A stretch of 64,000 bases of DNA from Kondoa subrosea (taxonomy: Eukaryota). The notes beneath the pieces were generated by a model. That model searched no databases. It worked only from the letters and a program-made list of their open reading frames with translations, and was not told the origin of the DNA. Each line of letters begins with the position of its first letter. Within the stretch, counting starts at the first letter, position 1. Shown piece after piece: positions 8,968-42,700 of this stretch. Location of the stretch: assembly GCA_039545335.1 (NCBI GenBank), contig BCIN01000010.1, forward strand, positions 329,804 to 393,803, written 5' to 3'. The position numbers were made by a program, and so were the translations under genes.

Positions 8968-11698
8968 CTACCATCTCTGCTGTCCATTATATTGATCAGG
9001 TTGCGGAAATGAGGGTTGCCCATACTGGGATGCTAATCAGCAGGACATCATAGTTCAGCTTGTTAAAGCCTCTGTGCATACAGAGAGCTACGTACCATTG
9101 CTCGGAGGCTGGTATCCAGTATTGTAACCTCCTTGGTTATAGCTTCCTGGGGGTGGTTGGGGGAACCCAGGGAGTTGAGGCTGAGCAGAACCATACGAAT
9201 CTTGTGGTGCATTGTACTGCTGCTGAGGGTAAGCAGGCTGACTGCCATAGTTGTTGTAGGATTGGGGTTGATACGGATCTTGAATGGCTGGAGGTGCTTG
9301 TGAATCATTGTTGTAGAAAGCGGCAGCTTCGCCGACTTCTCTTCTTCCCCCGTGAGGTTGATTCATCAGTTCTTGATCTGCCCAGTTAACGTCAATTGCG
9401 ACTGTCGGAACACAAGCAGAAGTGCTTACAGGTAGAATAACCTGGAATTTGCTGAGCATAGCCATGAGCCATCGTCCCAAACTTCTGACTTGCAGCATTG
9501 TACAGCTGATCCGGTCTACATCGAAAATTAGTTGCAGCTACCTGAATCACATGAGCAACCTTCATACTCACGCAGGCAAGAAAGATTGAGACTGTTGAGC
9601 TGAACCATGACTGTGCGGCTCGGCCTTTGCGCCTTTACGAACGTTTCTATGATTCCGAACCGACTCCTGCGCTTTCTGTCAGCGTCATGATCTTCGTATA
9701 AGTCAAATCAAATCACCTTTGTCAACGCGTTCAGAACATAACGTTGATCCGATTCTTGTTGAAACCAGGCTTGCATTGTACTGTACATCTCATTCTGTAT
9801 CTGCGATCTGTTGTCCGCAAACATCGGGTGATGAAAGGCTTGAAGAATCTCAAAGGCAACTAGTGAAGAAGGTCAAAGATCATCGTTCGCCTTCAGGATC
9901 GGACATACCATGGTTAGGATCGATCGAATTATCATCCCAAGCTTTCACTACTCTAGTCACCGAGAACTTGACAATGGTTTGAGCGATTCTCCCCGCAGGC
10001 TCATTCAGTAGGGTTGCGAAATGGTCTTTAGCGAGCATCTAAACGTCACTTAGCCATGAAAAGTGGTTGAGACATTGAAACTTACCGAATGAGTTGGATC
10101 GGATGCATTCGGATTATTGAATACTTCAAATTGATCCTCGTTATTTATCACAGCTGCGCTACCCTGGGAAATTGTGTTTGTAGCTTGCTGCGCAACTGGA
10201 TCCACATACTGCAGGTGAAAACCATCAGCAACATATCTATCGGAGCCTTTGGTTTTACTGACAGGTCCGATCTGAGTGAAGCTGCAAAAAGATTAACGAG
10301 CTTGAAACGTGAAGGCCATATTACTTACACCCATTTATTGATGCTGACAGTGATTCTTTCAAGCAGACTAGACAGCCCTGGAACCTTCTCAATCCCTTGT
10401 TCTATGGCCATACAGATTTTGTCACGGAAGGCGAGGATTTGGAAAAGATTCTTGTGAATTTCTGCGGCATTCAATTGGCTTGGATCGAATCCTGCTCGAT
10501 TTTGTCTTTCGACATTATCCATCTCGCGACTAAGCTGCTGTCCATCTCCCCCAGGGATCTGAAAGATAAGATTGCGCAAATTGTCCGTTGAATTTGATCG
10601 TTCGCTTCGAGCTTTGGTCGTCTGTCTCTTGAGTTCTGACACGGATGCTTCAGAGATCTTATCTGCCGATTCACCTAAGAGGGAGTGCATGAAGTCCTGA
10701 GGACATCAAGCGGCATCATGTCAATGGCCAAAGTATAGACCCAGCAGAAGACTTACAGCAGACCCAAAAGTTCCTGTGATCAAAGGCGGGACCATTCCCT
10801 GAGGAGATTGAATTCGGACTGCATCACCAACGTGACAAAAAATTTCACGGTGACCCATTTTGAGCAGGTAGAGTTCCGTGATGTTCGAATGCGCGCTGAT
10901 ATCTTCCAAAGTATGTAAAAAGGAGCCAAGATTTCTGTACGCTTCCCACAGGATCTGATTGTCGCCTGTCTGACGCGCCTGACGGCCTTGTTCGATACAC
11001 TTCAGGATAAGGGTCCGAACATGTGCTGTACTAGTAGGCCATCCGCCTCTTTCGTTGCCTATGTAGTTCTTCATGCCAGTATTGGGATCAATTTCAAGTT
11101 CTTGTGGTGAGACAGGACCTCTGAGTTTCGGATTGATCTGTCTGGCGTCTTTGCCATCTGCATAGCCTTTTGGATTGTCAACGTGATCTTCCGCTCTATA
11201 GACCCCAATGCGTTCTTCTGTCACCTCAAATTCTCCTGTTGCATAGCCATGGGCGAGAAAACCAAGCAACATGACGACATTCATAATCGCAGCAACAGAC
11301 ATCTTGGCCAAGCCAGCTGTATCGAAAGCTTGGGAATAGTCCCTTAACCAATTGCCGAAGTAGACTCTCTTGGTATCTAATCCGCCAAACTGTACATGAT
11401 CTTGAGTACTGAAGATACAGCAGGAATGAATGAATAGCACACCTTTCCAGCACCCAAAACCGAAAGAATTGATGCTGCACCGCCGGATCGCTTTGACAAC
11501 TCTTGGAGGATGTCTTCAATATCACCATGTCTGAATGCTTTGCCCTCGTAAGCTGAATGACCAGGAATATTGCCAGCTATAGGATTGTAATGAGATACAG
11601 CAGAGGTTCTTTCCATGCTCTGACTAACCGCCGAATGCAGACACAGAGCTAGCGGATAGCAGCACTACCACAGCCAGAATCAAGATAGCTCGAGACAT
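8968..11698 (-). CDS. het-c: Heterokaryon incompatibility protein HET-C homolog
   Basis: Signal peptide MSRAILILAVVVLLSASSVSAFG; AGNIP..EGKAFRHGDIED; KRVYFGNWLRDYSQA; LHTLEDISAHSN; Q/P/Y/G-rich C-terminus. Confidence 0.93.
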
Positions 11699-11858
11699 TG
11701 TTCGTTAAAGCGAGAAAAGGGTGTTGATGTAATGCGCTACATAGGCATGCTGACTAAGCCGCATTACTCCGTTGTACATATACCTCTAGTGTATCTCTAG
11801 ACTTCTCTATGGTTCTATGTAACAAAACACTTTTTACGTCTCGCGTCAAAGCGTTGTT

Positions 11859-12950
11859 CTACCCTGCCGCAACGGTGCCACTACTATCAGCAAATGACCA
11901 ACAGTGCCCGCTGCGTATTGATTGCGGATATTCTAGAGCAGTATAAGTATCGTGAGTGCAAACACCTCTCGAGACTTACGACGATATTTGCATAGAATCC
12001 GCCAATCTGGTTCAGATGTATGAGGGACAGGCATTTTTTGAGGAGGTCAATGCCTTACCGTGATCAATAGACCGATCAGGAATACCAGCAGGTGAATCAC
12101 AGCGCCAAACTTTCGCTCTTTCCAGGCATTTGGGTGCATCGCAAACCACAGCAAAGAAGGCAACACCACATCCAATGGCCCAAAACCGACCGCACTATGA
12201 TGCTCCTCTCAGTTATTCCATCAAATTGCAGCTGAATTAGGCTCACCCGATCAGAGACACCAAACTCCCGAAGAGTAGTACATCTTCAGCGAGTAGCCAA
12301 GATACAATGCCAATACTGAAAGTGCAGCCAAACCAGGTTTTCCAGTGTCGAGCAGACTTCTTGATATTCTGTCGGGGGTCGAACTTCTGATTTGACAGGA
12401 ACGAAGCTACTTGCAGCGACATTCAGCAGTTGCTCATTGCTTGTAGGTCAATCTCTTCTCCCTGATGGAGCCCTTGTCGTGAATTTCTTGACAGATCCAG
12501 CTGAAGTGATGACAACCATACAATGCTCCGGTTTGCATGGCAGCTGACCGCATTGAGAGCCGTAGCGAATCTGAGTCTAGGGTTGCCGGCGCAGAGCTAC
12601 TAAGATTAGGTGAGCTTTTGAAGGGAGACAGAATGAAGCTTACAATTCAGTCCAAGAAGTCACTGCCAAAGTATGAGAGTAGGCCAAGTAGTGAGACTCC
12701 TTGTCGCGAATTAGATAACGCGCAGTTTGATGAGACATAAATTGGCTGAACGTGTCCGCAATGGACACTGAGCTCGCATTAGCAACGGAGTCAGTCAGAT
12801 GACACCGTTGCTGGAATCGATTTCGGATGGAAAAGACAAGGACTCAAGCTACTGAGACATGGGGGTCTTTGCAACGAGCACACATGCGAGATGAGCGTCA
12901 TCAAATAAGCGAAAGTTCCCGTCAAGAACGAAAGCATGACTGATGTTGGT
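11859..12950 (-). pseudogene. Amino-acid permease (Aa_trans/Mtr-like) pseudogene
   Basis: Minus-strand fragments ATALNAVSCHA, SSFVPVKSEVRPP, RHWKTWFGCTFSIGIVSWLLAEDVLLFGSLVSLIG|GAVGFGPLDVVLPSLLWF, AVIHLLVFLIGLLIT|IGGFYANIV|NIRNQYAAGTVG..ADSSG. Introns are retained but there are frameshifts and internal deletions. Confidence 0.75.
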
Positions 12951-14763
12951 GTGGATATTGTGTACAGTCACTGCAGCCGAAAGGCGAAAGCAAGACGCAT
13001 TGATCCCAAAGGGAAGGCCGAGGATCCAGGCTTGGATAAGGATAAGAATTGGAGCTCGCTCGAGGCGTTCAACCATGATTTGATGCTTAATGGTCATCTA
13101 GCCGTGCGTTGATTGCTCATGCATTGAACGACTGTTTGACGGAAATCGATTTCCTAGGTATAGATCCGTCGTCTCGATATGATTATTGTTGCATGATAAA
13201 AGTTCGCTGAAGGAAGAAACGAAATTCTCCGTTTGGCTCCGCAGGTAGCTGTAGCCGACAACTCGGTACAAGATTAACCTCTCGCTCCGCGTCAATCACC
13301 GCGCCCTATCGGTGCACCCATTCCTGGTCCATTTCGTACATCAATGTGAAACGATGAAACGATATTCTCGATTGTCTTTGCCAGGTCTTGCGGAGCAGTT
13401 CAGCGATGAACATGTCATGTCCAGAGACTATCTTACAGAAACTTGTTTTTGATTTTCTCTGAAACTTGATAGGTTCGGTACGCTTATTGGTCACATCGTC
13501 TAGTGGTCTAGGACAATTGGTTCTGAAACAGAAATCTCCAATAAACTTGGGTTCAAACCCCAATGAGACCTTTTTGCCACCGAGACCGACGTCTTGCAGA
13601 TTATTTTGCACGGAACGCGCTACTTGTTTGAACGGTGCTGCTCGCTGGTCGACCAGCTCGATTTTGTCGTCTGCCTGCGTTGTGTGGCGAACACTCGGCG
13701 ACAACTTACTAATGGGCGAACCAGCAGCTGCAAGGTAGGATCCAAAGTCGAACCGAAAAAGGGCAGATCGTTGGAGGAGCGAAAATCACAGAGGAGGTAA
13801 AAGGATATACATTCAATGCCAGGCCGTTGCGGCGCTGAAGTTGCGGAAAAATCGACGAGAGAGAGAAAGGACAGAACCCTATTGAAACCCTGTCAAATTC
13901 AACCTGCGCGATCTACAGATTGAAGAACTTGTCTCAAGTATCTATATACTGGAATGATTAACGGCACCTTCACTTGGACAGCGCGAGGACCAGAGTTTCC
14001 GCTCTAGTTGCTTCGATTGAAAGGCTTCAGACCTAAAATACGCAAGTATAGCAGATCTCGCCAAGATAGCTCGCGAGGATCGACAGCTGCGGCTGCACTG
14101 CGACTCTACGCGCTTCGCGCTCTGGCCTCAGCTTGCTGCGCAGGGCTTGACCATATGCCAGGTCGCAGCTTGGATTGATTGAGATGGCGCAATAAAGTTT
14201 AGCAAAACGAGATGTTGGCATCAGATGCATATGAAACTCGCATCGATATCGCAATAAGCGTCAGTGGACAGAGCGTGAACGACCGGCGTAGCAACTCAAG
14301 AGACTGTCGTTGCTAGTTGGACACTAGTAACCAAGAAGCGCGGTCAAAAGGAATGCTTGCATTTAAAGCAATGCACTATGATTGCAATTTTGATTTTGAA
14401 ACCTTGTTCAAGTCGGACTCGGACCCAACTTTTTCGGATTTAGCGGACTTACAGAAAATAGCGATCAAAAGTCAGTTGGTCTGACCTAGAGCAGACTCTG
14501 GTAATTTGCAAAAAGCTCAGAAACCCCGAGCATTTCAGCCTTAAATCACAGGATTTCTGTACAAATGTGTAAAATAGTGTTCTTTTGCTTGTAACGCTCA
14601 ATTGCACTATAGAGATACCACACTCATACAATGAATGAAAGTACAGCTTATTCAACGGACGTCCAACTCTATGCAAAGGCATTGAATCAGTTCTCTAACA
14701 TAGCGGTGTATCATCGAGCAGCGATATTCTATGTGTTGCGAACTATATCAGCATCGATGCCTC

Positions 14764-14888
14764 TACAGAGAATGATAGTGCTCTGCGAGATACAGCTCTC
14801 TAAGCTATTGATAGAGAAGAAGAAGTATCTCGCCCTAAAGTTCTCGCCTTGACCTTCAACTCTGACCTCAACCGTCATGCTACTTCAC
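14764..14888 (-). mobile_element. Solo LTR, family B (same family as the copia 5' LTR)
   Basis: Close copy of 19190-19312 (cagagaatgatagtgctct...gtatctcgccctaaagttctc...gtcatgct.cttcac). Flanks CTCTA/CTCTG look like a decayed 5-bp TSD. Confidence 0.75.
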
Positions 14889-15251
14889 CTCTGTAGCCTC
14901 AGAAGATGTAGCAGCACGTACCTGCGGGCATAATTCCTGTAGAAATGATAGAAATCAGAAAGGCAAAGATGAGCCAGTAGACCGAATTCTGAATCTAGAC
15001 TTCGGGAAGCAGAAAAGTAGTAATAAATCGAGTGTGTGACTCACGATGACTAGGAGCCAAGTAGAAGCATAGATTGAAGAGGTCGAGCTAGAATAATTCG
15101 CGACCACACTCGTTGACGTTCAACGTAAAGCTAATCGCAGCTATCCGAACGTATACAAGTTGCACCTGCCTGCCACAAGAGTATCAATCCGGCGCTGTAA
15201 CCAAATTCAGGTGTACTGAGCGCAGTAGAAGCAATATCGCGAAGATCAGAC

Positions 15252-15382
15252 TGATGGAGTCTCCATTCTCCATTAAACTAGTCCATTGGACATGTTAACC
15301 TTATCAGTCACAATTGTATTCCTTTTTGGCGCAAGTCATTGAGGGATTACGAGAGGTGCCTGTGGAACGGCAAGCCCTATCA
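15252..15382 (-). mobile_element. Family A ~142-bp TG..CA element, diverged copy
   Basis: Reverse complement of tgatagggct...ccctcaatgacttgcgccaaaaaggaatacaatt...ccatca; no clear TSD. Confidence 0.8.
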
Positions 15383-15473
15383 CGAAGAAAACCTGAATAT
15401 GATTAATTAGACGAGCTGACTTGCGAAGACACTGTTATACAGAGCAAAAAGCTCATTGATCTATGATAAAGGT

Positions 15474-15604
15474 CGAAAAATAAAATAAACAGAGCTGTTA
15501 GACTGCTCAGACTTGATGAAATAGAAGTATAGGATGAGAAGAAAAGCAGGAAGAAAGAGCATACTCGAGTTTTATGTACAGCTACCAGCCCGGATTAAAA
15601 TCAT
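15474..15604 (-). repeat. Family C LTR-like repeat, partial
   Basis: Diverged reverse complement of 17190-17310 (aaaactcgag...cttcctgcttttctt..catcctatactt...aagtctgag). Confidence 0.7.
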
Positions 15605-16985
15605 CTGACCCTTGCTAGACTTGAAGTTCCGTAGACTTTTTCTTGGCAAGGCTTCGGTAAGAATGTCAGGCAGGGTAGCAATCATATCGGCTGTGGGACG
15701 TGGGACAATGAGTGATGTCCAATTCGCCGACTGCAATTTTTTTCCAGATAAAATGATGATGAATGGCGATGTGTTTGGTGCGGTCGGTCATGCATTCCAG
15801 GATTGTGGTATGAACAGATGTTGCCATAGTTGTCGTTCTTTAGAGGTAGAGGACCAGTGACAGGACGTTGTAAATTTGATAAAAGTAACTTTGTTTTGCC
15901 ATATCCGAGCTTGCCATATATTCTGCTTCGCAAGTAGATTTGGCCACGGTTGGCTGACGCTTTGATTTCCAAGAAACAGTGTCGCCATCAACCTGGCAGA
16001 TATAGCCAGTAGTCGAGCGTCTTGTGTCCAAACATCCAGCATAATCCGCATCCGCATAGCCAAGTACCAAAGGTGCATCAGGATTGTGATCATAGCAGAA
16101 AGAAAAATCCAAAGTGCCTTTGAAGTAGCGAAGAAGGTGTTTGGCTGCCGCTACTTGCTGAGAACCCAACCTGAGTTGTACTGAGAAAGCTTGTTGGCAG
16201 CATAGAGATTTCCATGTAGACTTTCTCTTTGAGAGTAGCATTGAGGAAAGCATTGTTGACATCACATTGATCTGCTTCCAAATCTTCTCGCGCAACGAAA
16301 GAAAGTAGTACTCTTGTTGTATCTCTGTGAGTGACTGGAGCATAGCTTTCGCCATAGTTGACTCCTTCAACCTGACTTCGGCCATCGGCGACAATACGAC
16401 ACTTTCTCTTGACCAATTCGCCTTCAGCATGCAGCTTGTTGTCAAAGAGATATTGAGTGACCTGACGGTAGGTCCTTCCGCAGCAAGAGTTGATCTTGGA
16501 ATTTTGCGGAAAGTATCAGCTTGAATGAGAGCATTTTGTTCTGCTTCTATGGCCAACTTCCACCCACTCCTTCCATATTTGACTGCATCGCGGTGGGTCC
16601 TTGGTTCGGAAAGAGAGACTTCGACATTCAGAGCAATAAGATCTTCATCAGACTCTTCTTCAGCAGATGATGTCAGAGGTATCTGATAGGTCGAGGGTTG
16701 TATGAAGCTGACTTTTGTAGATCAGTGATAACGACTCCCACATGATTTAGTCGTCGAGGTAAATCCAGCTTGAGAACGTTCTTGGTGTCAAGGAGGCGTA
16801 AATGATTCATCCCAGTGCAAGACATCTCGAACGACCACAATTTTGCGACTGTCAGGGCAGTAGACACGATAATAACCCTTGATTCTATCTGGAAATACAA
16901 CGAAAAATCCCAACTTGGCGCGAGGATCCAATTTGCTGACACGCTTGTCCTTGTTGAGGGTATAGTAGACTCTGCTGCCCCCTTC
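15605..16985 (-). pseudogene. Copia pol remnant (SH3-like, RT, RNase H)
   Basis: ORFs 15840-16556 and 16090-16416 carry RT/RNase H motifs in alternating frames, with an internal RT deletion. Confidence 0.9.
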
Positions 16986-16989
16986 ATCT

Positions 16990-17325
16990 GCTTTCCTACG
17001 CGTAATCTACACGTCGCGTCACTTCAACGCGTCACGTTCTTTCCTACACGACCCCACGTCACGTCATTATACGCGTCACGTACTTTACTTCACCAAGCAC
17101 AACGCGATTGGTCAGGACTCATTTCGATATGAACGGTCAGGACTCAATTCAATATCAACGGTTGCCACATCGGGATGTACCGGGTCGTATGATTTCAATC
17201 TGGGCTGGTACTGCACATAAAACTCGAGTTTTCTCTTTCTTCCTGCTTTTCTTCGCATCCTATACTTGTATTCCAACAAGTCTGAGAAGTCTAGCAGCTC
17301 TATTTATCTTAAAGAACGTTCGAAC
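16990..17325 (+). repeat. Family C LTR-like repeat with ACGCGT/TCACGT motif array
   Basis: Homologous to 19560-19960 and 15474-15604. Contains an internal ~45-bp tandem duplication, a GGTCAGGACTCA direct repeat, a TATA-like cataaaa and a CT-rich tract. Confidence 0.7.
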
Positions 17326-18221
17326 TGGGAAGACTTCTTACATGAAACGTATTAGGTATGCGATTCGAAGACGATGGAAAGTGTTATCAACAAAAAACTT
17401 TCTTATCGGTATTCCCAAAACCTTCCTTCAAAGCTTTTCGAGCAGATTAGACAGGATTTGCAGAATCAAGACTGACATCGTACAGAGTGTCATGATCCGA
17501 CTCGATTGAATGCAGATTATAGATTCTCAATGACTGTGTATATTAGGCCTCCTCAATTCTCAAATATTTCCTGCTGAAGGAGACCGCCGGACTATTATTC
17601 TCTCAGAAAACCGTCGAATCTGAGCGGCTTTTCTTCTAGTAGCTGTCCATGAATTGAACAGATTGCACCGAGAAGTATTATTATTTTCTGCTCATCACCA
17701 GCGCACCGTCGTCGTGCTGGCGCCTTCTTGCCCCGATCTTGCGAAACTGACACTTGTGTTGAGCAGCTTTACAAGCAAGAATCCGCGACTCCAGCAGCTG
17801 TACGAGACGCGGCCTCTTCAAACCTGATGAGGGCCTAGGCAATTGCAGAATCAGAGCAAGGTTTCAGCTTCGGAAGGCCTAAGGCTCCTTGTTGTGAGCG
17901 ACCTGCTGAGAATAATGTTCGGGCCTCTTATTATTATTTTTTTCTTTTTGCGTAAGATAACAGACTGGAGTCGAATATAGCCAATCACTCAACCACCCAA
18001 AGAGGAGCAGAACTGTATCACCTGACAATAAACGCCCAAAAAGCTGAATGACCGTAGGGCTAAAACAGTGTTTTATGAAGTGTTGCATGAGCCCCAGTAT
18101 GGCATTGAATCAGTCTGTTAGACATCATGGTTCTGCACATCGCGAGCTCTAAAATTGATGATGAAAAGGCGAGGTGTGATGGAGTTCACAAAAACCTTCA
18201 TGTTTAATAAATTACACCAGT

Positions 18222-18363
18222 TGATAGGGCTGTGCCGTTAACCACAGGCACCTTTCGTGATCCCTCAATGACTTGCGCCAAAAAGGAATACAATTTTAAC
18301 TGATAAGGTTAAAATGTTCAACGGACCAGTGTGTACAAAGAATGATCGTTTGTAAGCCCATCA
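18222..18363 (+). mobile_element. Family A 142-bp TG..CA element truncating copia gag
   Basis: TGATAGGGCT...AGCCCATCA; the gag ORF reads into it. Confidence 0.85.
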
Positions 18364-19123
18364 CAGGTTTGCACAGGTTTGCTACAGCTGAAGAAGATTG
18401 AGAGGAAGTATGTGGAGGAGACAGCTTTAGAGATGGAAAGCGTTTGATAGTGTTACAATCCTCTGTCTTATGGAAATTCGAGCGATGGGAATTCGAGCGA
18501 TGGAATGGACAAGAGAAAGAGGAATCTGGTAAATAAGTCTTGTTTGAAGAAGAAATTGGTCCTTCTTCCGATTGAAATCTTCTTGAAGCTAGGTAGCAGT
18601 AAGTAAGGAGAAAAGAGATGGCATCCATAGTGATGTCCTCCTTACTGGGAATTTCAGGTTGTAGGAAGAAATGATGCCCATTGATCTGATCATACGTTCT
18701 TTTGACCTTGAGCTCCAATGACTTGAGATTTTCCTCTTCAAAGATTTCGATGTTGAGCAATGCGTAAAGATAATTGTATCTCTCTCCAAGAGAGGTTGAG
18801 GCATGTTTGACTTTGATCTTGTTGAATGCTTCTGCTTGGTCTTCAATGTCACGGATTAAGAGCTTGTTGTCGGCGTCAATCATTCGACCGAGTAAAGCCC
18901 TCGCCTTCTCTTGACTATCCTCGAAATCTCTTTTGAGCCTGAGCGTATTATAAGCATCTCCAGCTATCGTATCAGGAGCAGATTTGGTGCCATTGACAAT
19001 CTTCCAGACCTTTTCGATCTGAAACTTTTCTTGCGCATACTCCAACCATTTGTTGTAGTTATTGTAGGAGAGAATGACCTCTGTAGTTGTAGTGAGTGTT
19101 GTAGGCACTGTCACCACCTCCAT
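18364..19123 (-). CDS. Copia gag (UBN2-like) remnant ORF
   Basis: NNYNKWLEY...VWKIVNGTKSAP...KARALLGRMI...AFNKIK; degenerate Zn knuckle CPFH..H..C containing a 15-bp internal duplication. Confidence 0.85.
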
Positions 19124-19189
19124 GCTTGCGAGGAAGCTATTTGAATTGAGAAATAGAGCAAATAGTTAGAGGAGCACAAGGCTCAAACC

Positions 19190-19312
19190 GTCAGAGAATG
19201 ATAGTGCTCTACGAGATACAGCTCTAAGCTATTGCTGGAGAAGAAGAAGTATCTCGCCCTAAAGTTCTCCTTTTCACCTTCCATTTTGACCTCAATTGTC
19301 ATGCTGCTTCAC
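19190..19312 (-). mobile_element. Copia 5' LTR (family B, ~123 bp)
   Basis: Minus strand TGTGAAGC...CATTCTCTGAC is followed directly by GGTTTGAGCC and then gag; second copy at 14764-14888. Confidence 0.75.
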
Positions 19313-19559
19313 ATCCTGTAATCTGAGGCCTAAGGGAGTTGTTATCTCTCTTCTACACATCAAACCCAGGGAGGAGATGAATTTGTCAACATTGTTCCAC
19401 AACTCAGTCAACATCTCCAGCTACATCATATTCGGCGTCTACAGAAAATGCTCGGTCTGGACCAGAAATCACAATCAGACATGGTACGAGAGATCGCACG
19501 CCTTTATGATAACAAGTCCTTCCCCCAATCCTCTTGCTATGCTTAGCTTTATACAACGC

Positions 19560-19960
19560 TACCTAGCAGCTATACGTTGCGTCATCTCAACGTGCCATGT
19601 ACTTTATTTACTTAATCAAGCATAACGCGATTGGTCGATTGTCAATTCGATATGAACGCTCAGGACTCATGTTAATATGGACAGTCAATTGCCACTGCGG
19701 GTCGGGCATGATCCGAAGGCTCATCAAACTCGAGGTCTATGGCAGGGCTGTGTTGTCAACCACAGACACCTTTCGTGATCCCTCAATGACTTACGCCAAA
19801 AAGGAATACAATTTTAATTGGTAAGATTGAAAGGTTTAACGGACCAGTGTGTACAAAGAATGATGGTTTGTAAGCCCATCAGTCTGTCTTTCTTCTGCTT
19901 TTCTTCTCATCCTATACTTGTATACTTTTATTCCAATATGTCTGAAAACTTCGGCAGTTC
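19560..19960 (+). repeat. Family C LTR-like repeat split by a family A insertion
   Basis: aacgcgattggtc..ttcgatatgaacg.tcaggactca on the left and ctgcttttcttctcatcctatacttgta on the right of the A copy, colinear with 17090-17300. Confidence 0.75.
19740..19881 (+). mobile_element. Family A 142-bp element with near-perfect 5-bp TSD
   Basis: Flanks GTCTA / GTCTG. Confidence 0.85.
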
Positions 19961-20089
19961 TGGTTGTCTTGGACTATCAATTGCTTGGACAGTATCAACC
20001 TGATTGAAATTTCTTTGGCGAAGAGGAATCTGTCTTTCAACTCGTCTGTCGGTCTTTATTGAAGGTCTCTTTAGGCCTAATCCTAGAGA

Positions 20090-20495
20090 GCTTTCACCAA
20101 TTGAAAAGCAGGTTTGAAGGTGAAGGTGAATGCTTGTGAGCGAAGGTACAGGCGCAGGGAACAAGAAGAATCAGTGTCTGACCGCTTTGAATTGCAGGAA
20201 AGAATGATGGATGAAGAGCAAGAGCTGTAGGAGCTGCTTGCCTTGTACAAAGTTCTTTGGAAACCCTTTTCCAAAGATGTTCAGTCTACGATTCTATACG
20301 ACCCAGTTCGTGAGCCTTCATCATAAGGACAACCGGTCTCTAAGTAACAGCCTGCTGTCAACCGAGTGAAATTATACACCGAACCGTTGTTGAGAAAGAA
20401 GGAGCGACTCTTGGATTGACACTTGCATTAAAGGAGAGATGAGTGTTGATACCAAGTAGTGACATTGAAAGAGAGTGAGTGAGAGCTATCAAGGG
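20090..20495 (-). mobile_element. Family D relic (probably decayed copia gag region), copy 1
   Basis: Diverged direct repeat of ~21140-21590 (ggtgaaggtgaatg, attgcaggaaagaatgat, gcaagagctgta, acaaccggtct). Confidence 0.55.
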
Positions 20496-20593
20496 CCGCC
20501 TCATTAATTGCAGGCATCTTTCGTGATCCCCAAACGAGTTTCGCCGAAAAAATACATAATTTGGCTAGGGTGCAGAGAGGACGCCAGGAGAAC

Positions 20594-20737
20594 TGATGGA
20601 GCTTACACAAACCATCATTCTTTACTACACTAGTCCGTTGAACATTTTAACCTTATCAGTTAAAATTGTATTCCTTTTTGGCGCAAGTCATTGAGGGATC
20701 ACGAAAGGTGTCTGTGGTCAACGGCACAGCCCTATCA
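20594..20737 (-). mobile_element. Family A 144-bp element with perfect 5-bp TSD
   Basis: AGAAC-[TGATGGAGC...AGCCCTATCA]-AGAAC. Confidence 0.9.
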
Positions 20738-20759
20738 AGAACAACAAACAGACTTATTA

Positions 20760-21800
20760 CCGGTCGATCCGAGAAAGAGAACAAAGTAAAGAAGAGGCGA
20801 GAATGATTATGTCAACAAAAAGAACATCAATTTGCATATTGAGTTCTGACACAAGACAATCTGCAAACCTGGATCCATGCCAGGGAAAAGACAGTAACCA
20901 AGTATAGACAGTTTGTTCATCTTTCGATCTCGTTGGAGCGATTTGTCTAATCCCTTGCGATTTGATGTCCAATATTACCGATTGAGTGATCCAACTGCTC
21001 AAGCACAACCGAAATTGAAGGGAGAGGCAGGCTGCCAGTTGAGAAGCGATGGTACAAATACACCATCACGTGACTTTTGTGAGATCTGAACCAACGACCG
21101 ATGCAAAGTGATGAGTCTCACTAGAACTCTAGAAAGCTTTAACCAGGTTGGACGTGAGTTGGAATGTGAATTTGAGGGTGAAGGTGAATGTGTATCAGGT
21201 GAAGGTGAAGGGACAGAATTCAGAGTCTAACCGCTTTATGATTGCAGGAAAGAATGATAGTTAAAAAGCAAGAGCTGTAAGAGCTCCTTGCTTTGTACAA
21301 AGGAAGTTATAAGGAAGCTTCTTCTGAGAGATGTTGAATCAGATACTGTACTTTTGAGGCCTTGCTCGCGAGCCATCGTGATGAAGACAACCGGTCTTGA
21401 AGAATAAAGCCTGCTATCAATCGAACAGAAGATACTTGTTACACAGAACAACGCTTGGAATGTGTGTGAAATGTTATGTCGAGTTGAAGCAAAGAGAGTA
21501 TTTGTGTAGAGCGAACGAGAAGGAGCTGAATAGCTTGACATGACATCCTGTGGTCAAGAAGGAGTACTTGAGCAGATGTCAAGGGCCAAAGATACGAATT
21601 GGAACAAGACTTAGCTTTGGCAGGAAGGAAAGGCAAGGAGAGTGATCTCTTTAAAAAGAGGTTCGACGTGAAATAAAATAGACGCATGATTTTGAACACC
21701 AAGTCAGCCTCTGAACAACAGGCCAAGTACTAAGAAAAGTATTGAAACAAGGCTTAGCCTTGGCACAAAAGGCATATGATCGCTGATGTATAATATTCGT
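20760..21800 (-). mobile_element. Family D relic (decayed gag-like region), copy 2
   Basis: Homologous to 20090-20495; broken minus-strand frames show only weak gag-like patterns. Confidence 0.5.
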
Positions 21801-22527
21801 GCTGAGCCTGTTTGTCCAAAAGACCTCGTGCAATTTTTAACCTCGATTAAATATCTGTGTACTCATAAAAACTCAACAGAAGGAGATTTGGAATCAAGAT
21901 TAACATTTGTTAAAATAGACCAAGCCAGCGAACCCACAAGGATCCCAGAGCCCGGGAAGCAGATTGTGGTGCAGGGTGGGCGATGGCTTGCCGAGCGTTC
22001 GCCCACTAGCCATCGGATTTACGCTGAAATAGCATGGTTCAACGGTATTCCTTGTCCATTCTTACTGAGAGAAACAGATGCAGCTCGAAGCTGTACTTGG
22101 GTCATACAATCATGATGTAATAAGATCACAACATCTTCTGAAATCTGAACATTCGATGTTACTCATCATTCCTCTTCACTTTGATCGCCAGGACTCAATG
22201 CCTGATTGCAACCCATAGTAGGCTCTCAAATCGTTCGTGATGCTGCTCAGACTCTGAATGTCAAGTACTCGGTGTTGATTGCGCTCCTTGTCCATCTAAT
22301 GTTTTTCCTACCCTATTTTACCATCGCTGCCGACAAAATGCCTTAGTAAGCATTGAATTGATTCGGCTGCTAGCAATCACGTGGTCAGAGCTCGCTCGAT
22401 CGCTTCCGCTAAGCCGATCGAGGAAAAACCTTGAACCATTCTCGTTGGTGGAGTACCTACTTTGATTTCCTAGCTTAACATTACATATCAAAAAAACAAG
22501 ATATACGGCGCTGATATGTCTATAGCT

Positions 22528-22572
22528 CCATGCAGGTCAAGTCGAGCACCATGCAGGGCAAGTCGAGCACCA
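22528..22572. repeat. 21-bp tandem duplication
   Basis: ccatgcagg(t/g)caagtcgagca twice. Confidence 0.85.
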
Positions 22573-22774
22573 CTCAGCCTATTTTTATCGAGATCTTCTG
22601 CTGTTCTGCTCACTAGACTATTTCAAAACTAGCCGCGCTTTCGTACACTGACTTACGATTACTGAATCTCCTTATGGCGATTAATCGTTGCATTTGGACG
22701 CGACGTTGCGGATTTCTCGTATTTGTCCGATTGGTCCTCTGATCAAATACATTAGGGACAGTAAGCTGGTTTGC

Positions 22775-22917
22775 TGATAGGGCTGTGCCGTTAACCACAG
22801 GCAACTATCGTGATACCTCAATGACTTGCGCCAAAAAGGGATACATTCCTAATTGATAAGGTTAAAATGTTTAACGGACTAGTGTAGTGGAGAATGATGG
22901 TTTTGTGAGCTCCGTCA
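22775..22917 (+). mobile_element. Family A 143-bp element
   Basis: TGATAGGGCT...AGCTCCGTCA; flanks TGGTTTGC / TCGTTTGC. Confidence 0.85.
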
Positions 22918-25854
22918 TCGTTTGCGCGACAGCATCTTTGTTATAATATGCTATTTCGGTACGATCAAGAGTGCTTTAAAGTACTTTTTGGTTTATCGGT
23001 TTAGCCTAATTTTGGCAATCTTACTTAGCCAGCGGATCTTGATTTCTAGTTGTTCGATCTTTTTCTACCCCATACTTTGTCGTTCCACTGATACTGCGTT
23101 TGCAGAACGCTCCTGACGGGAGGTTGATAGATATCATTGCTTCCGCTGTGTTGAACTTACAGTTGCGATCCAAAAATTCACAGATACTTTGTTCCAAGCT
23201 TTTCCGAAAATAAAAGCATAAAAATATTCCTGTTTCTAATGCTCATGCCCCGCCCGCGGACAGATTGTTGCGGCGAAAGTTTCCATCATTTTTGCTCATT
23301 GTACCCCTCAAGGTATCAAGACAAGATTGACTTTCAAGAAACTAGACAGAATTCTTTCTCGCTTCGCTCCCCGCGAAATTTTAAATCACCCCTGTGCTCG
23401 ACATTGCAGTCTCTTCGGCAACGGAAGAGTTCCGGGCTGGAAACAATACGGTTCGCCACAACATAGCTCACTCGTCCTTCGTAAAGGGATGGGTTGTTGT
23501 TTGGACAGCTGTTCCGCAGCTTGAGACGCTAAACAGCATTTCAGTTCTGCATGACCAGCCAATGATTGCTGTACGTAGCTCAGTGTCCCTCAAACTATCT
23601 GACGGACTAGTATAGTAAAGAATGATGGTCTTCAGAAGCTTCGTCCCGATCCATGAAATCAACTTATTTCTCCTTTCATACATCATGTAATCGTCAATTC
23701 AGGAGTCTTTTTTCTTCTCCCCTGGACATGGGATTGGTGAATATGATATACTCTCACTCGTTTGGCTGCGAGCTGTTATCTAGGAATCTCCTCTCTGTGC
23801 CTCGGCCCATATTCGACTAGCTAAGAAAATGCAAGCTTGGAGCCAATCTCCTGAGATATCATATTTGAGCTTCGACGAGGTAGAAAGAGATAGGAAAGGT
23901 TTGCAATCAGACACCAACACGGAGGTGATCTGAACCTTCGCGAGAAGCGAAGTCAAAATTGCGAAGAAGAATTTCTGCCTGTCCTGTTGAAATTGAATTA
24001 ATTGAATTTTGTCTTGTTGCAACGAGGGTTCACAGAATTCCTTATAGCGAAGTTCACTGTCGCTAGCGAGCATTAGAATTCTTTTTCGCTTTTTCGCCTT
24101 CGCTTTTTCCGAAGGCTTACTGCTACTGCTGCACCCTTCGAGGAAAGAACATGTCGCTTCTGCAACGCTGCACTAGAATCCGAAGAGCACCTAATACTTG
24201 AATGCCTGTCTGAAACAATATATGAACTGCAGCGGCCGCTCATTACGCATGCTCAAGCACAATCAAAATTAACCAACAACACCAACACCCTGTCTACTCT
24301 CATCGAGGTGCTGTAAATGTCTGGCATACGTAAATCTGAACATACAACGTTAGATCAACAAGCTTGAACGAGGAAAAGAGAACGAGCGCCCAAACTTGGA
24401 AGAACGGACAGATAATGGGACTAGGCACTGCATGAAGAGCGTCAAGATCTGGAGTATGAGGATTTAGAAGTAGATTGGACAGCCACGCTAGCTATCATCA
24501 GCACTATTGATAAATCATCACCTGCGACACATCCAATGAGTACTGAGGGCGTCGGCGTAGCAGTTGCACTGCGCGACGCGGTCGTTAACTTATAACTGAA
24601 CTGAACTGAAGGCTTAAATCAACCCTAGGCAACGTAATAAGCTGACTTACCCGTCCGCCACGACTCTCCATCGATTTCTGTTCTTTGACCCACACCTTCG
24701 CTCGCAAGCGACCATCTTCACCTCCACCTTCAAATTTCCTATTCACGTAGGAAGCTCCCTCATAGGTCATGATCACGAATTCAAAACCAACAAGAGACCG
24801 AAGTGTATCAGTGGCTTGGCTTGCATTGAGCCTACCTCAACCCACTCACACATATCACATACCACTGTCTATCTATCGTGATGTCTGCAATTTTCTTGAT
24901 ATTCACTTTAGTGACCCGCTATGTTTTTATTGTATAAACTCTCGCTAACTTTTTATGATTAAAACCGACTGCGTAAACTTCTGCTACTTTACTGCACTCT
25001 GTATGTTCGTTCCTCCTTTCGGTGACACGTCTCTCTGTTCCTCCTTGGAAACGCATGCATAAGAACGCAGAGCTTAAAGAAGACATATGCACCCGCTCGT
25101 ATTTTCAGCACTACTTCGTTGCGATCTACACATTCATGTGAATACTGCAAACGCCAGCGAGAATTTCTTTTGAACAAAGCCCCGATAATGTATTGTGCTC
25201 TCCTGGAAGACATTGGATGGTATCACGCATGTTTGATGGCTCGCTCGCATGTTACAACGGGCTTTCAAGAGATAATGCCGAGTGGAAAGGCCTCGACTCC
25301 CTGACGAGATTTTGCTTCTTCCTGCTTGATGAATCCACTTTGGAGCACCTGTTGCTGCAAGTGCAGTAAGTATCGGATGACAACGCTATTTGCAAGATGA
25401 ATTAGAAAAGGGGAAGAGATATCTTCAGACGGCTGTTCTTAGTATTAGGTTTGTGTCTGCAGCGATCGCGTGGACCATCAGTCTTAGCATAGAATATAGT
25501 GTAAAGTGTTTCATCACGAGATGGAGAACAAGAAATGGGCGTGAAGAGAAGATTGCAGAAGACTGACATCTTCACGGTTTTCCACATAGGAGGAAGCTTC
25601 GCAGTTGTTAATAAACACGGGCCTATGAACATTGGAGTCAGCATTTGTATTATTGACGCAACTTCATGATGAACAGAGGGAAAAGGATCAGAATCGCAAT
25701 TGTTTGGCTATGCATCTGTCTCTCGCTCATGAATCCCTCTGCCCTCTCAAAGAGCAAGCAAAGGGTTTACAATATCAGACTGGGGCGACAACTTTTTCTC
25801 TTCTTATCCGAGAAGGAAACAAAGAAGAGGAAATACAAACACGAGGGACTTACT

Positions 25855-27232
25855 CTATTGGAATGTTTGTGCTCTGTATAGTATTGCAGGATGTCTGATG
25901 TCTTCCTGGCAATGTATCAACTGAAGTTCCATACACCTTAGTCGAGCAACGCGATCCTCCGGACTTTCGGTACTTGACGGTATGAGACTGAGTGTTGGTG
26001 GAGCTAGAGCTTTCGCCACAGCTTGAGTCTTGCGTATGATCGCACTCAGAGATCCAATGACCGATTCGGCTGTCGAGGCCAAGGGTGAAATGGGATGGAT
26101 AGAATTGCCTAAATCGAGGTGTGCTAAGGTCAAAGCGGAAAAGGTATCGCCCACACCTGCTTCGCCCACAGTCAGATATGCACGTCATCTAACGCAAGAG
26201 AGACTTGCCCTCGTAATGTTCCGGATATTCTGGAAACATGATGAAAAAAGCCGTATCTTTCCCTTCCAATGACCGCGAAGAGCCAGCACAGATAAGGCTG
26301 AGCCCTGCAGCTGTTGAAGATACTATCTGAGAGCCAGCGAGCGCCTCTGGCGGTATGATAGCTGAAGAGATAAGAACATGCGGCAAAGAATATATATCGT
26401 GAAAGGTGCGGAGCGCTTGACGCAAAGAAGACAGCGACCTGATCTTGATACCACTGAAAAGTTCCGCTTCGAATTGATTAGGTGTGATCACGGTCGCTTT
26501 ACAGATGAGTTCTTTATAACGAGGAATCACCTCGGGCGAAACCTGATACCGACTTAGCCAAAGTCCGGCTAGCTGTTCAAGGAGAAAGAACCCACATACA
26601 AGCGATTGTCGTCGCCGCATACTGGGTCGAGGACATAGATCAGACCGGAGTTGATTTCTCGTAACCGGTCTACTATTTTACTGATGGCGACTAATGATTC
26701 GGCTGAAGGAGTATAACCTGATGGAACAAGTTCAGAGCACAATATGCAACATCAATGCCACGGAAGTCTTACCGCTGAGGATGTGCGAATGTCTGAGCAG
26801 ACCATTGGCATCAAGCGAGTCGAAAATTTCCGTCAAGTGTGCTGCGTCGGATTTCGATCCGCCCCAACGCCCGTAACCTGTGCTGGAACCACGCACTTAG
26901 CGAAGCAAGCAAATGAGTCAAAGAGATCCCTTACTGATTTGAAAATTGGACTAGCAATATGATTCTTTAGGCCTGCATTCTGTGCAGCAGGGTCTGCACC
27001 GACCTGTATTGATTACATCTGTCTCAAATTCTAAGAGCTTGCCTGGCATAAATCAGCATGCAGCTCAGGAGTGAGTAGGGCATTCGCAGCTCACATTCAA
27101 AGCGAACATGGCGCACTTGTTACCAACATAACCGCTCGTCACAAACGACTCTGGCGCAGGGTGAGCTTGAGCTGTCAGTGACAGTTACAGATGGTGTAAC
27201 TCACGGATAGACAGCACTCGCTTTTCTGACAT
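25855..27232 (-). CDS. BUD16: Pyridoxal kinase (BUD16/PdxK family)
   Basis: RVLSI..GYVGNK, YVLDP, ITPNQFEAELFSG and GVGDTFSAL motifs; many short exons. Confidence 0.9.
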
Positions 27233-39747: not shown

Positions 39748-42700
39748 TCATATGTCCTCTTCTTCTTCCTCGCTGTCTTCTACCAGATCCTCAAGTCCGC
39801 TACTTTCCTCAGCACCTCTGTTGAGATCATTCAGCATATATGCGGATTTGATAACATACGTAACCCACTCTTCTCGTAATACTTTGGATATTTCGTCTTG
39901 AATTTTCGCTTGCTCGGCAGCTTTTCGTGCTGAAGTTGCGCTAACTCTTGAAGACGCCCGCGTCGATCGACTAGTAGCTGGTCAAGATATGCTCTAATAT
40001 GCGAGAGCATTGACTCACGCGTTGCTGTTGGGTATCTTGCTTTCCTCCACTGGCACATCTTCCTCTTCCGATTCAACAACGGACATAGCAGCGACAGAGT
40101 GCGAACGCGCTCGACTGCGTTTGGGGCTGTGTGGCAGAAATTCAGCACGGTTGACTATCGCAGAAGACTGCACGCACGCAGCATTAGATTTCTTCTTAGC
40201 CGGCATTTTCTTGGCTTTGGCTCGAGGTACTCCGGCAGCATCTTCGCGTTCCATCTCCTCCCTAATGAAGTCCTGCACCTTCGCAAAGAGCTGCGCTTCT
40301 TCGGTCTCGTTGATTCGATTCAATTGTGCGTGCTCAGCGTCGTCCATAACCTTGGCTCTTTCGCCGTACATTTTGTAGATGGTCGAATTCAATCTGATGA
40401 GCGTATTGCGAGATAATGCGTCACCAAGCGGACGCTGTTCCTGTACAGAGGTGACAAGGTACAGCAGTGATCGGATTCGCCACTCATCCAATTCTGGTGG
40501 TAGATACAACTTGCCAAGGAGTTGACATAATCGTTTGCGCTCATCCTCTACTCGATCATGTCAGAGAGAAGAAGTGCTAACAGCGTTCGTCGACTCACTA
40601 ATAGTCTCGGTGTATATCGACTTCAGCAACGACATGGCAAGATCGACATGCAGCAGCTGATCAACGGCAGTAGCATCGCTGGTACTGTCATAGATCGGAA
40701 ATCAGTGGTAGTTCGAACAATCCCGCGATATGTTTACACTGCTCTTGTCGGGTCTGTCCAGTCCATAAGCTGCAGAGCAATTTGCATGGGTGAGATCATG
40801 CCGGTGCTATCTTCTGCGTCGTTGAATTCGTCTTTCAGAATCTGAAGAGTCGGCAAGAGGATCTGCTCAACAGTGCATAAGCCATTTTCCGCAACGCACA
40901 GAAACCCTGACCTCTAACATTCTTCTCTGGTTGAGGGGCGAAGAATAGCAATATACTGGAAAGAAGTAAGTGAGACATTGTCGTAGATCTTGATTTGAGG
41001 CGGTTTCGGGAGCGAAATAGACTATAACGAGTTTTTGCAGGATCTGCAGTTGTGAAACTCAGCTTATAGAATCGCAATTTAAATATTTCAGACGAACACT
41101 AGAGTCGCTGACTACTCCCGAGAGCATCAACTTAGCAATGCCTATCGTGGCTATTGCCTGAACGCCCGGATCCTGCTCTAGTGCATGCGCAATGAATTCT
41201 AGCACTCGGTCAGGCTTCAGAGATGGTCAGTACATGGCCCGCAGAAGATTCTGTCACGCACACCATGTCCCTTGTCGGACAGGAAACTGATGCCGTAAAT
41301 CGTGAAAAGGTCAAAGATAATCTGATAGACCTTCTCTTGTAAAATGCCTTCTGTATTGACAGCTTGGTTGACAAACAATCCGAATGATTCGATAGCCATA
41401 CTCTGTTGCTTGTAAGCCCTAATCCGCTAGCAAGCATATGAATTCACCTTGTCAAGTAAACAGCATAATCCGAGGCAAACGATACCCGCCTCTCTCACTT
41501 GAGCTTCTTTGCTTCGCACTGAGGGCACTATTACTTCGTGAACCAAACCGCTGAGAGTAGAATTATCTTGTAGAGTCTATGCGCAAGTTTAGCAGCAAAG
41601 TGGAAGGTCGAAGTGATACTTACTCCAACAACTCTCTCAAGGAGCGCTTGTATGATGCTGAGGCAGCGAAGATGGACTTCTGTCTTGTCTTCCTCAAGCG
41701 TTTGCGTCGCAAATTTGATGTTTCGGTCTGCTTCCTGCCCTTCTCCTCGCAAAACCGCTTCGATTTCAGCAGCCGCCTCATCGTCGTCGTCCTCGTCGTC
41801 TTCTCCCGGTGCGCGAGTGATGCCTGCCACATTTGCGTCCTCTCGTAATTCCTGAACGATCTCGACGACCACTCTGAAGAAATCCCTCTCGTTCGTTGCG
41901 AGTTTAGACAGAATGTCGAAGCATGGTGGTATTAAGGCGAGAGGTAAAGCCGAATGCGAAATCATCTCGCCTATACATACCACACATTTAGCATTGGGGC
42001 GTATTGCGATGCAGCAATCAGACTGACGCATGAAAGCAAACATTTTCCGCCTGCCCGCCTCATCGGAGAAGTCAAGGAATAGTGCCATGCCCAAAAGTTG
42101 TGTCAGGACGAAGCTACGTTCTGCAAGACTCTCGTGCTGGGCTTCCGAATCGGTTTGGAGATCCTCTTGTAGGTTGTTCCAAATATGCTCGATTCTGTAG
42201 GCTAAAGCTGTTGCTACAGGTAAGAGCTCTTCCGTCCGCACGTCGTTTCCAGTCTCTCGCAAGAAGCTGATTGTAGCTCGAGCGAGGAAAGCAGTAACTG
42301 GGCTGATATTCGACCAGAAATCGTCTGCCATACATGATTTCAGCACTCTCCGGTAACGTTGACAAGACTCGAAGAATGACCATCAAAGTTGAGTTGGTCC
42401 AACAAGTCTCGGCGACTTTCCAAAATTGCAAACAGCCCTTCTTCCAGAATTCTATTCTCTTCCAGAGTTGCGTCCAGGATTGCAAAACTTTCCAGCAAAG
42501 CGCAAAGATCGTCGCCTGCCCATTTGCCTATCAATTTGCTGCCCGACTTCTGGACGGAGGGTTCGCGATCTTTGAGTCCGCGCTTTATAATTTGTAACTT
42601 TTGCTGATCTGACAGAGAAGTGTAAGGTAGATCAATGAGTGATACCTGAAAAGTAAGTCTCCGGTTGTTGATATCTACATCCCTTGTTCGAGAAAGGATA

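Follow-up and report, generated by a model that had tools for sequence, protein, structure and literature searches.

What does an interval of 14.2 kb without genes represent in the gene-dense genome of the basidiomycete Kondoa subrosea? In this work we have analysed a window of 64,000 nucleotides (the whole stretch of DNA under study), in which such an interval, called here the block, lies at 341–356 kb of contig C10. The preliminary description of this DNA took the block for the centromere of its chromosome, and our results, drawn from sequence, argue that it is very probably a regional centromere, that of the chromosome reconstructed below as C7+C10+C8. The block and its neighbours are (positions in the window):

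10,724–11,698, minus strand: left flanking gene, 5' exons of a Het-C domain protein (Pfam Het-C, E=8e-96)
11,699–25,854, no strand: gene-poor interval of 14.2 kb, GC about 44%, in which no intact host protein gene is recognisable
23,015–25,854, no strand: non-coding and largely unique sequence that includes two small relics, at 23,917–24,039 and 24,673–24,760
25,855–27,190, minus strand: right flanking gene, pyridoxal/phosphomethylpyrimidine kinase (Pfam Phos_pyr_kin; 5' end approximate)

The Het-C gene has its start codon at 11,698 on the minus strand and runs on leftwards, and the right limit of the block is given by the kinase gene, also on the minus strand, whose last open frame stops at ~25,855. 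Between 11.8 and 26.0 kb, three of the 111 stop-free frames of at least 55 aa scored above the Pfam cut-off, all of them copia (RVT_2, SH3_retrovirus, Retrotran_gag_2); two further frames gave weak matches below the cut-off, and no cellular Pfam family was matched above it by any of the 111. In the flanks 12 of 22 long frames exceeded the cut-off, these being picked by hand and not a control matched to the block frames. The mean codon-model coding score was 5.8 inside (14 one-kb bins), against 16.3 outside (50 bins) and 4.6 in shuffles (p=8e-7), and the GC content of the block is 0.439 versus 0.477 outside. Repeats, in a comparison with the window and the fetched regions only, cover 4,727 of 13,941 block bases and none of the 50,059 outside, so that the relics are indeed confined to the block within the window, as first described. 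The earlier statement that no intact recognisable gene lies inside is upheld for host protein genes, but not for RNA genes, since a full-length tRNA gene lies at 13,489–13,571. Read-derived contigs cover the block; the eight listed from run X1 have a depth of 143–164 (single-copy) and no differing letter, a check whose read runs may themselves be the source of the assembly. This single-copy depth disfavours a collapsed repeat or a misassembly.

The copia nest proper extends over 14,763–23,014. Five LTR-like families are distinguished and labelled A–E here, the families A–D of the preliminary description having come without definitions:

14,763–14,895, no strand: LTR family E copy, 87% identical to 19,192–19,320
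15,264–15,382, minus strand: truncated LTR family A copy (repeat comparison)
15,481–15,611, minus strand: LTR family B fragment on the 3' flank of the broken pol (repeat comparison)
15,637–16,977, minus strand: broken copia pol, with integrase end/SH3, RT and RNase H region (Pfam RVT_2, SH3_retrovirus)
16,978–17,313, plus strand: LTR family B copy of about 335 bases, opposite in orientation to pol (repeat comparison)
18,222–18,363, plus strand: LTR family A copy of 142 bases with TG...CA ends, capping the gag frame (repeat comparison)
18,299–19,165, minus strand: copia gag, in a frame open over 289 codons (Pfam Retrotran_gag_2, E=9e-8)
19,192–19,321, minus strand: LTR family E copy immediately 5' of gag (repeat comparison)
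19,574–19,970, plus strand: older family B fragments (75–76%), split by a family A copy at 19,744–19,881
20,064–20,498, minus strand: LTR family C copy of about 410 bases, starting TGATAG, as does family A
20,594–20,737, minus strand: solo LTR of family A flanked by a 5-base target-site duplication, AGAAC
21,096–21,650, minus strand: diverged family C relative, 72% identical to the first C copy and 87% to a C3 copy
22,775–22,917, plus strand: LTR family A copy (repeat comparison)
22,936–23,014, plus strand: family D, about 80 bases, 86–97% identical to copies in each of the other four clusters

Nested copia remnants and repeat families had been reported here, and both broken gag and pol and the five families could be located. 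Compared with its copy in the cluster on contig C3, where a gag-pol element lies between two family B copies (93%), the pol relic shows several frame changes, two internal deletions and 85–92% DNA identity. The final codons of the gag frame extend into LTR A, and no pol follows gag. After the LTR E copy at 19,192–19,321 there is a motif like a primer-binding site; a primer-binding-site-like motif, and then gag, also follow the C6 copy of family D. The family A copies of the block are up to 96–99% identical to those of C1 and C6. A 99% match of 18,221–18,461 to C6 stops at a run of N, and may reflect recent exchange between clusters or an assembly leak. That only truncated elements survive, as had been stated, is true of the block but not of all clusters: that on C3 retains open copia frames of 1,529 codons (gag-pol) and 1,188 codons (pol), which carry all Pfam copia domains, Pol_BBD, integrase and RT among them, with terminal repeats that are 100% identical.

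Where else do these families occur? All 116 matches of the block core elsewhere in the genome (39 of 43 candidates scored) fall in four other clusters, which make up about 0.4% of the genome. For family A, whose 20 candidates were all scored, 20 of 20 matches lie within the five clusters; the segment 20,064–23,020 has 63 of 63 (25 of 25 candidates scored), and copia RT has 12 of 14 in clusters, the other two being on unplaced 4.7-kb contigs. A dispersed repeat at 13.2–13.4 kb of the window served as an internal control, with 14 of its 15 matches outside the clusters. All five clusters are gene-free, with GC of 0.433–0.439 versus 0.477–0.480 in their flanks. From ORF lists and coding scores the block, at 14.2 kb, is the shortest and lacks a full-length element; the others measure about 16, 16.5, 17 and 27 kb, the sizes at C2 and C6 being uncertain as these clusters hold several kb of N. 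No gypsy-type RT was found in the genome, only Ty1/copia.

The 18.9-Mb genome could be rebuilt as five chromosomes from contig-end overlaps and telomere repeats. Exact end overlaps join C7–C10, C3–C9, C1–C11 and C6–C4, and the joins C10–C8 and C9–C5, which run through repeats, are inferred. A telomere-type repeat is present at six contig ends, and assembled telomere repeats are absent from four of the ten chromosome ends; the right end of C5 matches itself only. Each reconstructed chromosome carries one cluster, at 0.49, 0.54, 0.48, 0.46 and 0.57 of its length, with no others among the scored matches. This is firm for C2 and C6+C4, which are telomere-capped at both ends, while for the other three it uses joins partly inferred from repeats. 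Were C5 or C8 a chromosome of its own, it would be without such a cluster. The check that had been proposed, one interval with shared families per chromosome, thus gave the result expected of centromeres, and it supports reading the block as a small regional centromere, a prediction that we hold with high confidence, of a chromosome of ~3.0 Mb (C7+C10+C8).

Other copia families are also found near chromosome ends (the starts of C7, C6 and C9), and because of this copia presence alone marks heterochromatin and not only centromeres. It could be argued that these clusters are islands of heterochromatin outside the centromeres, acting as traps for transposons and making siRNA, and that the centromeres lie elsewhere in repeat-free DNA. 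The RNAi genes are present and expanded, and LTRs are absent from some Kwoniella centromeres (PMC11185503), as this explanation would have it; about 0.2 Mb was read outside the window, and a gene-free interval lacking these repeats may exist elsewhere. Islands of this kind, however, give no reason for exactly one per chromosome at 46–57% of its length, and families A–E are missing from the chromosome-end copia sites among all scored matches, and we consider them very unlikely.

The left 2.9 kb of the block consists of other material:

11,851–13,147, minus strand: decayed, inverted, internally deleted copy of a two-gene segment, in pieces 70–90% identical to C10:244.0–247.0 kb
13,200–13,400, no strand: dispersed repeat, the control mentioned above, not specific to clusters
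13,489–13,571, plus strand: tRNA gene, anticodon CTG (Gln), with a short intron (Rfam RF00005, 47.6 bits, cut-off 29)

The degraded copy bears out the earlier mention of decayed genes. Its source lies about 95 kb away and comprises genes whose motifs resemble those of an amino-acid permease and an amidase; a Pfam scan of one source-gene exon gave no match. An inverted duplicate adjoining the left edge recalls a rearrangement breakpoint, and together with the shortness of the block and its lack of a full-length element it would suit an old centromere that has become inactive, or the scar of a chromosome fusion, the active centromere being elsewhere on the chromosome. Against this, no second cluster was found among the repeat-family matches on C7, C10 or C8, and the LTR A identities of 96–99% to C1 and C6 indicate that the block took insertions as recently as the other clusters. 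None of the five interstitial telomere-type matches lies inside a cluster, which rejects a telomere-fusion scar. We regard this explanation as very unlikely.

At all three sites seen in sequence, the dispersed repeat precedes a tRNA gene by about 90 bases. The tRNA gene of the block, found by Rfam and undetected by ARAGORN, has one acceptor-stem mismatch and may be a left boundary element. As a general rule tRNA boundaries are rejected, only two of the five clusters having one: a tRNA gene also lies at the edge of the C3 cluster, and the DNA fetched for the clusters on C1, C2 and C6/C4 showed none. A tRNA-directed insertion hot spot, which those two edges would suggest, or a non-recombining mating-type region gathering transposons is highly improbable, since three clusters show no tRNA in that DNA, the tRNA-adjacent element is the dispersed repeat and not families A–E, and a mating-type region leaves clusters on five chromosomes unexplained.

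How might a centromere of this kind work and be maintained? Eleven histone loci were read, namely H3 (6), H2A/H2A.Z (3), H2B (1) and one CENP-A-like gene at C7:1,357.6–1,358.3 kb; a CENP-C_C domain lies at C6:862 kb, and the genome has one Pre-SET (Clr4-type) gene. CENP-A chromatin and a CENP-C kinetochore would lie inside the gene-free interval, surrounded by Clr4/H3K9me heterochromatin that RNAi would supply, with the tRNA gene possibly marking the left edge. The LTR copies are about 70% to 100% identical, nested and accompanied by target-site duplications. Several copia families may have inserted repeatedly into the five domains, and LTR–LTR recombination and deletion would then leave solo LTRs and fragments, a trimming that may hold the domains at 14–27 kb in a gene-dense genome. 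We lean towards active targeting of the clusters over purging alone, because the arms, which tolerate another small repeat, lack even solo LTRs of 80–140 bases.

The preliminary description had likened the block to the short centromeres of RNAi-deficient Cryptococcus. This likeness fails: domain matches reveal Piwi at two loci, RdRP at four and paired RNase III domains at two (Argonaute, RdRP and Dicer-like genes), RNAi deficiency being rejected on the presence of these domains, and C3 holds long open copia frames. The short-centromere type produced by RNAi loss, with Ago, Dcr or Rdp lost and no full-length retroelement in any centromere, is therefore not the type seen here. The genome yielded no candidate for DNA_methylase (PF00145), in a search that an intron-split Dnmt5 could escape, and because of this the proposed 5mC mapping may be uninformative. 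A BAH search gave two loci, without bearing on Dnmt1. CpG o/e is 0.83 in clusters versus 0.89 outside, C/T differences between repeat copies amount to 7.3% at CG, 9.6% at CC, 5.7% at CA and 5.3% at CT, and strong RIP or CpG decay was not seen.

A wider reading, possible if on balance doubtful, is that this lineage has lost cytosine methylation and keeps RNAi, with five short, copia-only, mid-chromosome centromeres fed by copia integrases that would target CENP-A chromatin. It would be a natural case in which the loss of RNAi and the loss of 5mC can be told apart as causes of short centromeres, the two being confounded in C. deuterogattii and U. maydis; it would also be a haploid fungal system of small size whose copia elements seem intact and centromere-seeking. 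With RNAi genes present and no methyltransferase found in the search, the genome could serve to ask whether the length of centromeres depends on RNAi or on 5mC. The five LTR families, strictly confined as they are, could likewise serve to ask whether integration in fungi is directed to centromeres. The Tal1 element of Arabidopsis is of the copia type. Tal1 is described as centrophilic (PMC11735389), whereas in Kondoa subrosea targeting of CENP-A chromatin is only putative.

CENP-A-bound regions coincide with ORF-free, LTR-bearing intervals in Cryptococcus (PMC5866544) and Kwoniella (PMC11185503). As in Cryptococcus (Tcn1–Tcn6; PMC5866544), there is one ORF-free, retroelement-rich locus per chromosome in Kondoa subrosea, with families common to the centromeres and mostly confined to them; Cryptococcus, however, has both copia and gypsy and 14 chromosomes, whereas here there are Ty1/copia only, no methyltransferase domain found, and five large chromosomes with mid-placed clusters. 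The centromeres of C. deuterogattii average about 14 kb (PMC5866544), close to the 14.2 kb of the block, but Kondoa subrosea has RNAi genes and full-length-looking elements in one cluster. In Kwoniella, short centromeres have already been described alongside intact RNAi (PMC11185503); they have a mean of 8.3 kb and bear LTR remnants, and CENP-A coincides with the ORF-free interval. Kwoniella keeps Dnmt5 and DnmtX, whereas no DNA_methylase domain was found in our search, and the present clusters are longer (about 14–27 kb) and richer in nested copia. Ustilago centromeres were likewise predicted in silico from ORF-free intervals, and those of U. maydis average 12 kb without a methyltransferase, but also without RNAi (PMC5866544). 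The C6/C4 core lies between 4.7-kb inverted repeats, 99.3% identical, as in Komagataella phaffii (PMC5010909), and may reflect assembly of a repeat; long inverted repeats occur at only one of five clusters (with short inverted pieces at C2), and the block, having none longer than one LTR (about 147 bases), is not of the K. phaffii / S. pombe type.

In a protein tree of 36 rows (35 from 120 hits, a sample without Tremellomycetes, Cystobasidiomycetes and rusts), the query fell outside the sampled Microbotryomycetes, Ustilaginomycotina and Agaricomycetes/Dacrymycetes, beside metagenome sequences; the best named protein matches are Microbotryomycetes, at 64–65%. In the literature, mostly outside subscription journals, we found no centromere described from Cystobasidiomycetes, Rhodotorula or a basidiomycete yeast with five chromosomes, and no match to the telomere repeat words. 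Transposon-cluster centromeres are common in fungi, and a recent atlas, which reports them for 34 of 49 fungi, suggests that centromeric chromatin is targeted (bioRxiv 10.64898/2026.09.17.752431). The block is a further case of this well-known type, and one more predicted example is unsurprising; what is added here, in a basidiomycete, is a complete candidate set of five loci with coordinates, a rebuilt five-chromosome karyotype and a CENP-A-like gene. As in those 34 fungi, each reconstructed chromosome carries a single cluster of young nested insertions.

Our analyses point to the 14.2-kb interval at 11,699-25,854 of the window, or 341.5-355.7 kb of contig C10, which runs from the start codon of a Het-C gene (11,698) to the end of a pyridoxal kinase gene (~25,855), as very probably a centromere. 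Only 3 of its 111 frames of at least 55 aa passed the Pfam cut-off, all of them copia domains, and its coding score (5.8) is near that of shuffled sequence (4.6; flanks, 16.3), while its GC content is 0.439 versus 0.477. The preliminary description saw no intact recognisable gene in this block, which holds for host protein genes but overlooks an intact-looking tRNA gene. The block is spanned by read-derived contigs, possibly built from the assembly's own reads, and those listed for one sequencing run have a flank-like depth of 143-164 and zero letter differences. Its features, with LTR-like repeat families labelled A to E by us, are:

11,851-13,147, left part: decayed inverted copy (70-90%) of two genes at 244-247 kb of the same contig, C10
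13,200-13,400, left part: dispersed repeat
13,489-13,571, left part: tRNA, CTG anticodon, intact-looking
14,763-23,014, core: broken pol, gag and LTR families A-E
15,637-16,977, within the core: broken pol
right part, 2.8 kb: mostly unique non-coding DNA

Repeats cover 4,388 of the 8,401 bases in 14,700-23,100. The gag remnant (289 codons) is interrupted by an LTR. Family A is 142 bases long with TG...CA ends, and its five copies are 79-97% identical, the one at 20,594-20,737 bearing a 5-base target-site duplication. We read family B as an LTR because two B copies (93%) flank a gag-pol on contig C3. Families D and E lie upstream of what we take to be a primer-binding-site-like motif, followed by gag. 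The inverted duplicate is 90% identical at its outer end and 70-80% further in, with its source genes 95 kb away; an inversion, one of whose breakpoints lay at the edge of the cluster, may have left it behind. A comparable inverted pair of 545-base segments (95%) is present at the C3 cluster's right-hand edge. The dispersed repeat stands about 90 bases 5΄ of a tRNA gene in the three of three places seen in sequence (window 13,200-13,400, and 2,657-2,745 and 9,184-9,225 of another stretch of the assembly, L009), which suggests a tRNA-targeted element; several further copies lie near LINE-like RTs.

A search of the whole assembly with the block gave 135 matches, with 39 of 43 candidates scored: 116 derived from the core, all in four other clusters on C1, C2, C3 and C6/C4, which together span ~80 kb or 0.4% of the genome; the dispersed repeat accounts for 15 more, 14 of which fall outside the clusters, and the duplicated genes for the last 4. 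Two narrower searches in which every candidate was scored agree (20/20 and 63/63 in clusters). By domain, clusters hold 12 of 14 copia RT matches (the other two on unplaced contigs C13/C14), 5 of 6 gag matches (one at the C7 start) and 3 of 6 integrase matches (two on C13/C14, one adjoining the C6 telomere). The RVT_1 profile gave five weak, dispersed matches, which we read as LINE-like, and no gypsy-type RT was found with it. The other clusters are also gene-poor (GC 0.433-0.439), with approximate gene-to-gene sizes of 16 kb (C1), 16.5 kb (C2), 27 kb (C3) and 17 kb (C6/C4), those of C2 and C6/C4 including several kb of N. They are located at C1:2,248-2,264 kb, C2:1,831-1,847 kb, C3:2,281-2,308 kb and across the C6/C4 junction.

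The assembly comprises 18,876,459 bases in 27 contigs, and a repeat of two alternating 10-mers, TTATGAAGAG / TTAGCGAGAG on the 3΄-running strand, occupies six contig ends (C1 start, both C2 ends, C3 start, C6 start and C4 end). This telomere-type repeat is not TTAGGG and has no GGG run; its five interstitial single matches all lie outside the clusters. No telomere paper with these words was found in our literature search, and the repeat may be even more out of the ordinary than the centromere. Exact overlaps join the C7 end to the C10 start and the C3 end to the C9 end (95 bases each) and the C1 end to the C11 start (56 bases seen), and the C6 end overlaps the C4 start over 3,496 bases (99.9%). 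From sequence we infer two further joins, C10-C8, where the C8 start resembles C10 at 531,858 (97%) in an inverted-repeat geometry like that of C6/C4, and C9-C5, whose starts both lie in one dispersed repeat, two further copies of which place them ~107 bases apart with orientations that fit. The C8 end is LSU rDNA. With these two joins through repeats, the 11 large contigs yield five chromosomes of 4.58, 3.40, 4.79, 3.02 and 3.02 Mb (18.81 of 18.88 Mb). As the preliminary description anticipated of a centromere, each rebuilt chromosome carries one repeat-sharing cluster, at 0.49, 0.54, 0.48, 0.46 and 0.57 of its length, so that all would be metacentric if the joins hold; five random points would fall equally near the middle with a chance of ~5e-5, a figure that uses a post hoc threshold and hinges on the joins. 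Near the C10 end (C10:500-541 kb plus the C8 start) lies another large inverted repeat, with arms of ~9 kb or more around a 22.6-kb core; this region could be invertible or mating-type-like.

That only truncated elements survive is true of the window's block but not of the C3 cluster, where two long frames, a gag-pol of 1,529 codons and a pol of 1,188 codons, carry complete sets of domains and have identical terminal repeats. At C3:2,295-2,305 kb, two copia elements, one nested inside the other, have identical terminal repeats and are apparently young; one C3 family recurs at the C7 start (100%). The C6/C4 core lies between 4.7-kb inverted repeats (C6:1,374,253-1,378,942 and C4:1-4,713; 99.3% identical) containing most of a host gene, and the C2 cluster has short inverted pieces on its flanks. 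Beside the C6/C4 cluster (C6:1,368-1,373 kb) is a gene that is presumably myosin V by its motifs; the myosin V orthologue is mating-type-linked in Cryptococcus.

These gene-free, low-GC nests hold insertions of many ages. We propose that copia elements would insert into centromeric chromatin, where LTR-LTR recombination and deletion would prune them and RNAi and Clr4 would silence them. No A-E copy was found on the arms, although the small dispersed repeat can persist there between genes, which argues for targeting. Since related copia families also occur near chromosome ends, heterochromatin of any kind may be what is targeted.

Window genes are fungal in type and intron-rich (Dam1, Het-C, homoaconitase), and the genome is that of a basidiomycete. 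The nearest named relatives of the homoaconitase are in Microbotryomycetes (64-65%), and in a 36-row tree it grouped with metagenome proteins, outside all named groups sampled. At 17-20 kb from the predicted centromere are a HEAT-repeat gene (42,343-43,563), which we take to be like a condensin subunit, and the kinetochore gene Dam1 (44,991-45,647); their closeness to it is probably due to chance. Elsewhere, a CENP-C_C domain is present, and C7:1,357.6-1,358.3 kb carries a divergent H3 gene that shares 62% identity with the genome's H3 segment, against 94-100% for six canonical genes. Its loop 1 is longer, and the top structure matches are, by a small margin, H3/CENP-A chimeras and S. pombe Cnp1. 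Pre-SET marks one gene. The likening to RNAi-deficient Cryptococcus fails, as the genome has Piwi (2 loci), RdRP (4) and paired RNase III (2) matches, counted as domain matches rather than checked gene models. The domain search gave zero DNA_methylase candidates, although Dnmt5 could have escaped it. CpG is barely depleted (0.83 versus 0.89), and C/T differences between repeat copies are 7.3% at CG, 9.6% at CC, 5.7% at CA and 5.3% at CT.

We take the clusters for centromeres because in Cryptococcus (PMC5866544) and Kwoniella (PMC11185503) CENP-A covers the ORF-free LTR interval. C. deuterogattii, unlike this genome, lacks long intact-looking copia frames of the kind in the C3 cluster, and Kwoniella has short centromeres with RNAi and methyltransferases kept (PMC11185503), whereas here the DNA_methylase domain is apparently absent; RNAi together with this apparent absence was not met in the centromere literature compared. 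Our literature search found no published description matching the five-chromosome karyotype. The centromeres of rusts are gypsy-rich, methylated and much larger (PMC12129025), and those of K. phaffii are inverted repeats (PMC5010909); the C6/C4 arms represent either a geometry like that of K. phaffii or an assembly effect. Transposon-cluster centromeres occur in 34 of 49 fungi in a recent atlas (10.64898/2026.09.17.752431), and it is to this already known fungal kind that the block would belong.
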